A stretch of 64,000 nucleotides of DNA. Origin: Escherichia coli (GTDB lineage: Bacteria; Pseudomonadota; Gammaproteobacteria; Enterobacterales; Enterobacteriaceae). Positions 18,366 to 22,251 of the stretch are shown here, piece after piece. The DNA lies in assembly GCF_003334405.1 (NCBI RefSeq), contig NZ_QOWM01000003.1; one strand, written 5' to 3'. Position 1 is the stretch's first letter; each line of letters starts with the position of its first letter. The position numbers and the translations under genes are program-made. The notes under the pieces were generated by a model. That model did no database searches, was not told the origin of the DNA, and was given only the letters and a program-made list of their open reading frames with translations.

Positions 18366-20999
18366 TTATTTGGGAAGCGCAGTTCCCCATTCACGCCACT
18401 CTTTCGGTTCACTTTCCTGCAACAGGAAGTGTTTGCCTTCCTGGGCTTTCGGTGCCAGTGGCGTACCCGGAGGCGTGGCGAAGGCGATGCCGCCACGGAT
18501 AAACTGGTTAAAGGTGCCGGTTTTCACTACGCCGCCCGTCAGACCAAAGTCCAGACTGTAACCCGATGCCAACCAGAAGACGGAATTGTTACGCACCAGG
18601 TGTTGATAGCGTTTACTGATGCGCATCGCAATCATCACGCGATCTGACAATGTCCCCAGCGTCATTCCTGTAACCGTACCGACTTCCAGACCACGGAACA
18701 GCACAGGCGTACCGATGCCTAACGAACCGGCTTCCGGCGCTTCAACAATAATGCTTAAGCCATCCAGGTAACGCGAATCAGTAATGGTGGCCTCTTGTAA
18801 TTCAAAGTCGCGGCGAGGATTGCCCCGGCCTGGTTCGACGTTGATATACGGCTGGAGGATAGTATCAAGATGCTCAACGCCAGCTGCCGAAATTTGCGGT
18901 GTGACCACTGAGAAGCGCGTACCACCGCGAGCAAAGGTCTGGACATATTCCGGGTAAAGTACCGCCTTTGCCTGTACTTCATTGCGTGCGGTAATCAGAT
19001 CCAGCGTCTGGATTTGCCCGATATCAATACCGAGATAGCGAATTGGCATCCCGACCGCCAGTTTTCCGGCATCGAAAGCGTGAAGCGTAATCTGCCCGCC
19101 AACCGCACGGGCCGCTGTTTCGGAAGCATACAGAATACGCTTATCGCCTTTACGCTGACTGGCGCTGGCACCGCTGAGGTTGTCGAAGCTAATGGCTCCC
19201 TTTAATGCTCTGGAGAGCGGGGATGCCTGTACGGTCAGACCACTACCATTCAGCTGAACTTTCGCCCCGCCTTCTGCCCAGAACACGCTATTGCTGGTCA
19301 GAAGGTTGCGATACTCCGGCTTAATATGCAGATCGATATCAAACGCGTTAGCTCGCGGACGCACGGTAATCACTTCACCAACTTCAAATTTACGGTACAG
19401 CACTACCGATCCTGCCTGCACATCCGGCAGCGTCTCTGCACTCAAACTCACGGTTGTGGTGGGTAAATCGCTAAGGCTGTTCTCCAGCGCTTTTTCCAAA
19501 TTGGCATACAGTGGATAGCTGGCTTTCATCTCACCTTTATCGCCCGGCAGAATACGTATCCCGCCATTGATCCATTCTGAGGCGCTGGCACCGAGAAACT
19601 CAACGCCATCCAGCCCCACCTTCACATCGACACGGCTGTTGACGACAAATTTGCTATCGCCTTTTACCAGTTCGCGATGCTGAGGCTCGATGGCGACGGT
19701 AAAGGTGACGCCTTTGCTGGTGAGTTTACGATCGATAACCTGGCCTACCTGCACGCCGTGAAGAATGAGCGGCTGACCCGCATCAATACCGTAACTTTCC
19801 GGCGCGGTCAGGGTCAGCGTCAGAACATCAGGTTCATGCAGCAGTGCTTTTTCGCCTGGCACAACAACGAACTCTTTGCGTGGCTCGCCATCGCCGGGCA
19901 CCAGCTCGAAGGTTTTGCCGGTCAGCAGGGCGCTGAGATTAGCATCGCTAAGGGATAATTTCGGGTTGCGTAATTCGATGCGGGTATTTTCACGAAGCAG
20001 GGTAACGACGCTGGGATCAACGGTCATTTCCCCTGTGACTTTACCACCAGGATTTAAATCCAGTTTAGTCAGCTGTCCGACTTCCAGCCCCTGATACATT
20101 AACGGCGTCGAGTCGGCGGTTAATCCGGCCCCACTCGGCAGTTCCAGTTTTATTATTACGCCACGCTGGCTGTGGGCCAGATCTTCATACAGACCAAAGG
20201 TATCTTCCGCCTCGGCAGGTTTCGACTCTTCTGGTGAATCGAAGGCAATCGCACCGTTAACCAGTGCCGCCAGGCTTTCCAGTTTCACCTTCGCGCCACT
20301 GATACTGACGTTGGCATCAACGCCGGAAACGTTCCAGAAACGGCTACCTTTTTTCACCAGATCGGTAAAACGCCGCTCGATCAGGACATCAATCACCACG
20401 CCTTGCTTGTTGGGATTGATGGCATAGTCGTAGACTTTTCCCACCGGGATCTTGCGGAAATAGACCAATGAACCGCTGTTCAGCGAACCGAGATCGGGGG
20501 CTTGCAGGTGGATCATCAGATCGCCATTGTCCAGCCGATATTTCGGTTGGGTATCGAGTGCGACAAAGTGATCCTGCTCTTTACCTTTACCCGGCATCAT
20601 GCCGATATAGTTCCCACCGACGAGGGCGTCCAGCCCGGAGACACCTGCCAACGATGCTTTTGGCGTCACCAGCCAGAACTGAGTCTCTTCGCGCAGCGCA
20701 TCTTTCATATCGGACTTGATGCTGACCTTGACTTCAATCTTACGAAGATCGTCGCTGAGGCTGATATCCTGCACTGTTCCGACTTCAACGCCCTGATAAC
20801 GAACAGGCGTACGGCCTGGAACAATACCATCCGCCGACATAAAGTCGATGGTGACGGTATTACCCCGGTCCTGATAACTGTCCCAAATCAGCCAACTGGC
20901 AATCATTAGCGCGATGAACGGCAGCAGCCAGAAAGGTGAGATACGGCGTTTATTTTTAATCTGCGCTTCAGTCGTCGAAGCGGGCGTTTCCTGACTCAT
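18366..20999 (-). CDS. letB: Lipophilic envelope-spanning tunnel protein LetB (YebT), multi-MCE domain
   Basis: Track ORF 18366-21041 trimmed to [28 protein letters not shown]... (877 aa); a single N-terminal TM helix followed by repeated MCE-like segments. Confidence 0.93.
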
Positions 21000-22251
21000 G
21001 TGCATCCCAAAGTAAGCGGCTGTCCAGCCATTCCACAGCAAGAATAGTCAAAATTACCGCTGCGCCGAAATAAAACGCAGCCGGTCCCATAGTAAAAGCG
21101 AGGATCTGATCGCGATTAATCAGCGACATGGTTAAAGATATGACAAACAGGTCGAGCATCGACCAGCGACCAATCCAGGTCACCATCCGCAGTAACAGAA
21201 TGCGTGTGCGTAAACCTTGCTGGCATTTAAAATGAATGCTCAACAGTAAAGTGAACATGACGATCACTTTAGTAAACGGTACCAGAATACTGGCGATAAA
21301 CACGATTCCTGCAACCGCAATGTTGCTACTTGCCAGCGACATAATTCCGGAAAGAATTGTATCTTCCTGCCGTCCTCCGTTCAGATAAATGATAGAAATA
21401 GGCAACAGGTTGGCAGGTAACAATAAAACGATTGACGCTAACAGCGCCGCCCAGCATTTTTGCAGACTATGACGGCGACGCAGGCGTAGCGGGATATGGC
21501 AACGCGGGCAGCGACCACGCTGATCTGGATAGCCGGTAAAATGGCACCCAAGACAGACACGAAGTTTCTCGTCCCTACGCGTAGCGGGGCGCTGCGGATA
21601 AAATCGCTCCCACAGTTCTTCGACATTAAGATGTGACAACGTCACCGTCGTTAAAATCACCAACGCCACAAAAGAGAACAAGCCGACACCAGCCTGGATA
21701 TGGGCATAATCCTGTACCTTTATAGAAGCAACGCCAATGCCGACCAGGTAGATATCGAGCATTACCCACTCTTTAAGTCGCTCAAGCATCAGCAGTACCG
21801 GACGTAAATTCATTCCCAGTCGGTTACCAAACCATAAATAAGCTATGGAGGTCACCAGAATGAGCGGGGCACCAATAACGCAGAAAAAGACCATCGACCC
21901 CGTTATCGCATCGCCCTGTTTGGTCATTTGCCAGATGCCTTGCATAACGTTGGCGTCAATACGAATGCCTAACAGCCAGATATGCAACAGCGGTTCGCCC
22001 CAGGCAAACGGCATAAGCAACAGCATGGTGAAGGCCATTGCCGCCAGGCGCGTTAGCGACCAGTCGCGCCCGTCACGAATTTTTGCCTGACAGCGCGGAC
22101 AATAGGCACTTTGATGAGAATTTATCTCGGGCAGGCTAAACAGCATGTCACATTGCGGGCAACGTTGGTAATCACCACGCGGCAGTTCCTCGCCGATTGC
22201 CCTCACTGTTATCTTTTTTGTCGGCGTAATTTGTGGTGTGTTAAGAGCCAT
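20968..22251 (-). CDS. letA: PqiA-family inner-membrane protein LetA (YebS)
   Basis: Track ORF 427 aa; two Cys-pair zinc-ribbon-like motifs (CPQC...CPRC and CLGC...CPRC), each followed by TM segments; 3' end overlaps the letB start. Confidence 0.93.

Follow-up and report, generated by a model that had tools for sequence, protein, structure and literature searches.

Conserved letB start codon and 32-nt gene overlap in the letA-letB operon of Escherichia coli

The 64,000-nt window of Escherichia coli DNA analysed here (contig NZ_QOWM01000003.1) carries the E. coli K-12 letA-letB (yebS-yebT) bicistronic operon, which serves lipid transport and in which translational coupling from letA to letB is possible but not necessary. 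The letB ATG is fixed across 77 Enterobacteriaceae and two upstream candidates are not, which is a new observation. The operon, both structures, the zinc ribbons, the LetA duplication, the seven MCE domains and the 32-bp overlap are already published. The study of the same locus (PMC13017536) contains no analysis of overlap conservation, start choice or synonymous constraint, and these three are added here. The earlier annotation of this locus is useful chiefly in having identified it correctly with nothing but the sequence to go on, and is minor as a discovery.

Gene identity and protein architecture

Both genes, and all features described below, lie on the minus strand; the first-pass annotation gave no strand. 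According to the ORF list and the RefSeq annotation of the MG1655 record, which is 100% identical across the region and labels the genes yebS and yebT, the letA CDS occupies positions 20968–22251 (427 aa, stop included) and the letB CDS positions 18366–20999 (877 aa, stop included). The region was found in 5425 of 5426 complete E. coli genomes. LetA was identical to chain A of PDB entry 9n8w over 427/427 residues and LetB to chain B over 877/877, with 6v0c and related entries matching as well, so that the gene identities proposed earlier agree with solved structures and the literature. LetA scored 704.9 bits against TIGR00155 (NCBIfam, PqiA/YebS family; cut-off 260.35) and fell below the PqiA equivalog cut-off (212 bits vs 562). 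Given its identity to 9n8w_A, this sub-cut-off equivalog score and the seven-MCE gene downstream, LetA is the orthologue of YebS and not of PqiA.

A terminator-like hairpin (18333–18358; 11 pairs, 8 of them G-C, with a tail beginning TTTAT), found in a consensus scan only, lies just 3′ of the letB stop and probably marks the end of the bicistronic unit. An internal letB promoter within letA was rejected, since the consensus scan gave sites only at chance level (3 vs 3.6 expected), none of them adjoining the letB start. The proQ gene is situated some 700 bp away from where letA begins.

LetA consists of two consecutive modules. The N-terminal zinc ribbon (aa 24–65; 22057–22182) contains C31PQC34 and C51PRC54, its limits and zinc binding being taken from PMC13017536, and is followed by the N-terminal membrane domain, the first PqiA repeat (aa 66–218; 21598–22056). 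The C-terminal ribbon (aa 219–261; 21469–21597) was delimited from cysteine positions, the homologue alignment and PMC13017536; it contains C233LGC236 and C248PRC251 and precedes the C-terminal membrane domain, the second PqiA repeat (aa 262–418; 20998–21468). Pfam PF04403 (PqiA) matched residues 66–217 (E = 1.3e-38) and 263–418 (E = 8.4e-43). The paired motifs recognized in the first-pass annotation, CPQC...CPRC and CLGC...CPRC, each lying ahead of a membrane domain, are borne out by the cysteine positions together with these two matches. The spacing is n = 16 in the N-terminal ribbon and n = 11 in the C-terminal ribbon, where the family motif is defined as CXXC-Xn-CXXC with n = 11–18 before each membrane domain (PMC13017536). 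Only 11 of 200,000 shuffles of LetA reached four CxxC motifs from its 11 cysteines, and all eight ribbon cysteines were invariant in 11 homologues with identity down to 28%, E. coli PqiA included. In the homologue alignment, an invariant D410-x-R412-L413-x-W415 motif closes the C-terminal membrane domain.

The internal duplication suggested earlier was also recovered by BLASTP, the N half aligning to the C half with 29% identity over 175 residues (E = 4e-16). Published cryo-EM resolved two modules, each a zinc ribbon plus a membrane domain, with four TM helices in the N-terminal membrane domain; ICP-MS gave about 2 Zn per LetA, and Cys mutants were not tolerated (PMC13017536). LetA is an inner-membrane pseudo-dimer of two homologous modules, each comprising a cytoplasmic tetracysteine zinc ribbon and then a four-helix membrane domain.

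LetB begins with a transmembrane helix region (aa 14–45; 20865–20960; range from PMC13017536), visible in the translation as a 20-letter hydrophobic stretch. Seven MCE (MlaD) domains follow (aa 45–808; 18576–20867), each matched by PF02470 with E from 4.7e-19 to 1.5e-4, which substantiates the earlier description of LetB as a long multi-MCE protein. Seven MCE rings have been described for LetB, and the complex has a stoichiometry of 1 LetA to 6 LetB (PMC13017536). LetB is membrane-anchored, and six copies stack into a periplasm-spanning lipid tunnel on one LetA.

The overlap and the position of the letB start

letA and letB share positions 20968–20999 out of frame, the letB frame being offset from that of letA by one base. 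Estimated at about 30 nt in the first-pass annotation, the overlap is exactly 32 nt in the ORF list and the MG1655 annotation, as stated in PMC13017536. On the LetA side it covers codon 418 through D427 and the stop, and on the LetB side residues 1–11. LetA 419–427 and LetB 1–13 were without density or omitted in the structural work (PMC13017536); the two proteins use the shared DNA only for disordered tails, C-terminal in LetA and N-terminal in LetB.

The overlap measured 32 nt in 73 of 77 Enterobacteriaceae and 44 nt in the other four, where the letA stop lies 12 nt further downstream with the letB ATG unmoved. A homologous-protein search yielded close Enterobacteriaceae only, and a 50%-identity representative search returned orthologues at 50% and 44% identity with overlaps of 56 and 38 nt, respectively, in both of which the letB ATG is placed 2–3 codons past the same LetA motif. 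At 39% identity, one orthologue had an 8-nt overlap and another had none. Among some 60 further annotated E. coli genes that we inspected, co-directional overlaps ran from 1 to 11 nt.

The letB start codon was assigned to the ATG at 20997–20999 from conservation and INRI-seq, a published cell-free initiation-site ribosome profiling method. A start elsewhere is scarcely credible. In K-12 the open frame of letB reaches back to 21047 and includes two upstream codons, TTG 21041 and ATG 21005, that would lengthen the overlap. The annotated ATG is invariant in 77/77 Enterobacteriaceae, whereas TTG 21041 is replaced by TTT in 3/77 species and ATG 21005 by ACG or ATA in 19/77. Changes 5′ of the letB ATG fall nearly all at letA third-codon positions and are mostly synonymous in letA and radical in the letB frame, which argues against translation of the intervening codons as LetB. 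A start downstream of the letA stop, which would leave no overlap, is likewise disfavoured, the next in-frame Met being LetB residue 32, within the membrane helix.

In the INRI-seq data, the letB start peak (NC_000913.3:1917510) was present in 5/5 replicates at 29.8–69.1 CPM and lies 12–18 nt from the annotated ATG; the letA start reached 6.3–7.9 CPM. Neither gene is entered in the INRI-seq table of alternative start sites. TTG 21041 and ATG 21005 were therefore rejected on both conservation and INRI-seq, and the same two lines of evidence place the letB start within the overlap rather than beyond it, as originally proposed. The INRI-seq fragments span only −30 to +153, so that the letB fragment lacks the letA start; they are short, denatured and translated in a purified system, and native full-length mRNA with long-range structure or letA ribosomes may behave otherwise. 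Published in vivo Ribo-RET has a peak at neither letA nor letB, presumably because of low expression.

An embedded initiation region and the question of coupling

A block of exceptional nucleotide conservation extends from about −50 to +32 of the letB start (20968–21049). The entropy of letA third positions was 0.52 bits at −60 to −30, 0.21 at −30 to 0 and 0.135 in the overlap, against a baseline of 1.26. Windows as low as −60 to 0 were absent elsewhere, with 0/365 comparable windows in letA and 0/595 in letB. Conservation of the overlap is expected from double coding alone, and only −60 to −1 needs further explanation. Within the latter lies a weak Shine-Dalgarno-like GGGA (21005–21008), which the letA W415-D416 codons form 5 nt ahead of the letB ATG and which is invariant in 77 species. 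Its duplex with the anti-SD has an energy of −4.0 kcal/mol, a value equalled or bettered by 28% of all 20-nt mRNA windows.

Judged from sequence, the conserved block fits a letB translation-initiation region embedded in letA. The ribosome-binding region of letB would sit in the last ~17 letA codons, with GGGA supplied by the codons of invariant Trp415-Asp416, and would hold the synonymous sites of letA there under strong purifying selection. A more specific reading, that the conserved ~50 nt (about 21000–21049) have a dedicated regulatory role at the RNA level, for instance as a standby site or as the binding site of an sRNA or RNA-binding protein (e.g., ProQ), is unlikely in our estimation; if true, it might allow one transcript to fix the ~6:1 ratio of LetB to LetA synthesis. 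No Rfam matches were obtained in 18000–22600. Neither single-sequence folding nor RNAalifold gave any sign of RNA structure masking the letB start.

Regarding an embedded letB initiation region, it may be asked how far letB translation depends on letA. The position of the genes is that expected of a coupled pair, with both on the same strand and in one operon and the letB start inside the letA end in 77 species. Coupling is nevertheless not required, because in the cell-free assay letB initiates even on a fragment that excludes the start codon of letA, and a non-overlapping construct works: a plasmid with letA and letB refactored as non-overlapping ORFs served as functional wild type in the published mutational scan (PMC13017536).

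Facilitated coupling, in which ribosomes ending letA open up the mRNA at the letB start or increase the ribosome concentration nearby, making a substantial share of letB translation dependent on them, is a plausible yet doubtful possibility. Coupling is common among overlapping operon genes. Here an overlap persists in all 77 species (32 or 44 nt) and at 44–50% identity (38–56 nt), the whole letB start region lies within translated letA, and a weak letB SD would benefit from ribosomes arriving from upstream. The same independent initiation in vitro and the functional refactored plasmid count against it. The single-sequence folding of the junction was also no better than that of shuffled sequences (z = −0.35) and RNAalifold on 65 distinct junctions found compensatory changes in 0/28 predicted pairs, the sequence being too conserved for this comparison to be informative. 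Moreover, the 1:6 stoichiometry needs more letB than letA initiations.

This stoichiometry also argues against one-for-one coupling. Strict termination-reinitiation, in which the ribosome at the letA TGA (20968–20970) would back up ~29 nt to the letB ATG and yield near one-for-one synthesis, is very unlikely, and only the geometry of a stop codon near a start codon speaks for it. Efficient reinitiation is usually seen where genes overlap by 1 or 4 nt, as at the pqiB-pqiC ATGA junction, whereas a 29-nt backward movement would be required here. In the four species with the displaced letA stop the ATG has not followed it, and letB initiation in vitro is independent of letA. A third-frame mini-ORF (ATG 21031, 11 residues, with a TGA that makes ATGA with the letB start) was rejected as a coupling device because a C-to-T change turns its codon 4 into TAG in 19/75 species.

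Our preferred reading is that in the cell letB would be translated mainly by de novo initiation at the embedded site. Judging from the stoichiometry and the in vitro peaks, letB initiation would be more frequent than that of letA, consistent with the 1:6 complex, and passing letA ribosomes would add at most modest facilitation. As to LetA and LetB abundance, neither gene is present in the supplements of Mori et al. 2021. The fixed letB start, the overlap in disordered tails and the constrained letA end are of use for re-engineering letAB or for asking how a single mRNA yields a 1:6 complex.

Comparison with known systems

The operon in the window is the same locus as E. coli LetAB (PDB 9n8w/9n8x; Santarossa et al., Nature 2026, PMC13017536), with identical proteins. 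In the paralogous, paraquat-inducible PqiABC system of E. coli, PqiA has the same two zinc-ribbon-plus-membrane modules as LetA at 28% identity and shares with it all eight cysteines and the C-terminal D-x-R-L-x-W motif, and PqiB is a multi-MCE protein like LetB. PqiB has three MCE domains, compared with seven in LetB. The gene arrangement differs: pqiA and pqiB are separated by a 4-nt gap, unlike the overlapping letA and letB, and PqiABC includes an additional gene, pqiC, that shares 4 nt with pqiB, whereas letAB is bicistronic.

Classical coupled pairs with ATGA or TGATG junctions resemble letA-letB in that co-directional genes encode one complex and the downstream start lies inside the upstream CDS. 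However, such pairs overlap by 1 or 4 nt, in contrast to the 32 nt of letA-letB, and letB, set against them, initiates independently in vitro.

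The letA-letB locus and its products

Over 18300-22320 the window matched E. coli K-12 MG1655 at 100% identity; of 5426 complete E. coli genomes, 5425 carried this stretch at an identity of at least 95%. According to the RefSeq annotation of the identical MG1655 record, yebS (letA) occupies 20968-22251 and yebT (letB) 18366-20999, both on the minus strand. They are flanked downstream by rsmF and on the other side by the divergently oriented msrC-proQ-prc genes. The two coding sequences share exactly 32 nt (20968-20999, minus strand), which the first-pass annotation had put at about 30 nt, and the letB frame is offset from the letA frame by one base. 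A terminator-like hairpin, detected as a consensus match only, follows letB (18358-18333, minus strand). The neighboring rsmF has an annotated GTG start at 18286 and an in-frame ATG 6 nt upstream at 18292 (18284-18292, minus strand). The INRI-seq tables contain neither a peak at the annotated rsmF start nor an alternative start for this gene.

Pfam assigns two PqiA domains to the 427-residue LetA (66-217 and 263-418), and the protein matches TIGR00155 (PqiA/YebS family) with a score far exceeding the cut-off. The four proposed CxxC motifs were present (C31PQC34, C51PRC54, C233LGC236 and C248PRC251), a number of motifs obtained in only 11 of 200,000 shuffles of LetA, which has 11 cysteines in total. 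The eight motif cysteines showed no variation among homologues, E. coli PqiA among them, at identities as low as 28%. Alignment of the N- and C-terminal halves (175 residues, 29% identical, E = 4e-16) bore out the suggested internal duplication. The second membrane domain ends in D410-x-R412-L413-x-W415 (residues 410-416; 20999-21017, minus strand), a motif likewise invariant in LetA and PqiA homologues to 28% identity; where LetA orthologues share at least 44% identity, the letB ATG follows this motif at a distance of 2-3 codons. LetB is indeed a long multi-MCE protein, with 877 residues and seven MlaD/MCE domains. Cryo-EM LetAB entries 9n8w and 9n8x contain chains identical to both proteins; 6v0c and related PDB entries also match LetB.

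In the published work, LetA is built from a pair of related modules in which a zinc ribbon on the cytoplasmic side precedes a membrane domain of four helices; the metal-binding motif is CXXC-Xn-CXXC, ICP-MS gives about two zinc atoms per LetA, and the cysteines do not tolerate mutation (Santarossa et al., Nature 2026, PMC13017536). The gene overlap is given there as 32 bp. In the complex, a LetB hexamer of seven MCE rings stands above one LetA; density is absent for LetA residues 419-427, and LetB residues 1-13 are missing from the structure and left out of the model (PMC13017536). Thus, every element of the first-pass observation is correct and previously known, and its interpretation is confirmed except for translational coupling, which is unproven.

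The letB start and its proposed embedded initiation region

Three candidate starts lie in the letB frame, which is open from 21047: TTG 21041, ATG 21005 and ATG 20999. These were compared across 80 fetched loci from other Enterobacteriaceae species (LetA 76-97% identical), with 77 complete junctions analysed, the window itself among them. ATG 20999 was unchanged in 77/77 junctions; ATG 21005 was replaced by ACG or ATA in 19 and TTG 21041 by TTT in three. Nearly all substitutions between TTG and ATG fall on letA third-codon positions; most leave the LetA residue unchanged, and read in the letB frame they are radical changes (L to Q, W to L or S, T to I, M to T).

In INRI-seq, a cell-free initiation profiling method in which a purified system with retapamulin-arrested ribosomes is applied to denatured fragments, the annotated start of letB (NC_000913.3:1917510) gave a peak in 5/5 replicates (29.8-69.1 CPM), and the letA start gave 6.3-7.9 CPM (Hör et al. 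2022, PMC9825163). The alternative-start table has no entry for either gene, and in vivo Ribo-RET gave no signal for letA or letB (PMC9825163). The invariance of ATG 20999 and the INRI-seq peak therefore place initiation at this codon, within the overlap and not beyond it.

Third-codon-position entropy of letA, averaging 1.26 bits gene-wide, fell to 0.52 bits at -60 to -30 from the letB start, 0.21 bits at -30 to -1 and 0.135 bits inside the overlap. In windows of 20 third positions, the -60 to -1 segment reached 0.364 bits, against minima elsewhere of 0.873 in letA (365 windows) and 0.855 in letB (595 windows). Double coding explains conservation of the overlap; the upstream segment needs another constraint, for which the letB ribosome-binding region would be the simplest candidate. 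The 30S subunit contacts mRNA from roughly -35 to +19, and synonymous change is lowered around enterobacterial starts. A weak SD-like GGGA (-4.0 kcal/mol; 21008-21005, minus strand) is made by the W415-D416 codons of letA, W415 being invariant in LetA/PqiA homologues.

Translational coupling

The overlap geometry allows coupling; no evidence of its operation was found in the in vitro initiation data, the construct, the stoichiometry, the junction RNA or a mini-ORF. Strict reinitiation, in which letB is translated by ribosomes that have finished letA, could not provide the complex of one LetA and six LetB, since at this ratio letB must be initiated more often than letA. In INRI-seq each transcript extends just 30 nt upstream of the start (PMC9825163), and therefore the letB peak arises without any letA translation. 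Furthermore, a plasmid with letA and letB refactored into a non-overlapping arrangement is functional (PMC13017536). Passing letA ribosomes might still add to letB translation. Predicted folding of the junction RNA was no more stable than that of shuffled sequences (z = -0.35), compensatory change was absent from all 28 pairs predicted in this strongly conserved sequence, and no Rfam match was found at the junction. We propose that most letB translation would begin de novo at a conserved site lying within letA, with the overlap probably tolerated because only the disordered tails of LetA and LetB are encoded there.

A mini-ORF in the third frame of the mRNA strand (ATG 21031, 11 residues; 20997-21031, minus strand) was considered as a possible coupling uORF. 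In K-12 its TGA stop and the letB ATG share bases in the sequence ATGA. Codon 4 is a TAG stop in 19 of 75 species, and the mini-ORF is therefore not a conserved device.

The overlap in relatives and in the pqi operon

The overlap measured 32 nt in 73/77 species and 44 nt in the other four, where the letA TGA is changed to GGA and the next stop is taken. A 50%-identity representative search supplied distant orthologues, each with a single candidate start in the relevant stretch. By automatic gene calls, overlaps were 56 nt at 50% identity and 38 nt at 44% identity, with the letB ATG 2-3 codons past the LetA motif RL(L/I)W(D/K). Of two further orthologues, both 39% identical, one had an 8-nt overlap and the other none by the same type of call.

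Two records showed irregularities. In Kluyvera ascorbata ATCC 33433 (locus L060:4753-4950), an extra base in a C run at about codon 64 shifts the letB frame, reflecting either an assembly error at the homopolymer or a true pseudogene. Locus L064 (CACSKA010000003.1), labelled Chryseobacterium sp. 18061, carries an Enterobacteriaceae-type letAB with LetA 79% identical to that of E. coli and a junction identical to the enterobacterial consensus; this record probably reflects contamination or a wrong label.

Among some 60 further annotated genes of E. coli, co-directional overlaps spanned 1-11 nt. In the paralogous E. coli pqiABC operon (L083:6683-8327), a gap of 4 nt lies between pqiA and pqiB, in contrast to the 32-nt letA-letB overlap, and pqiB shares 4 nt with pqiC; a long overlap is thus specific to the Let lineage.
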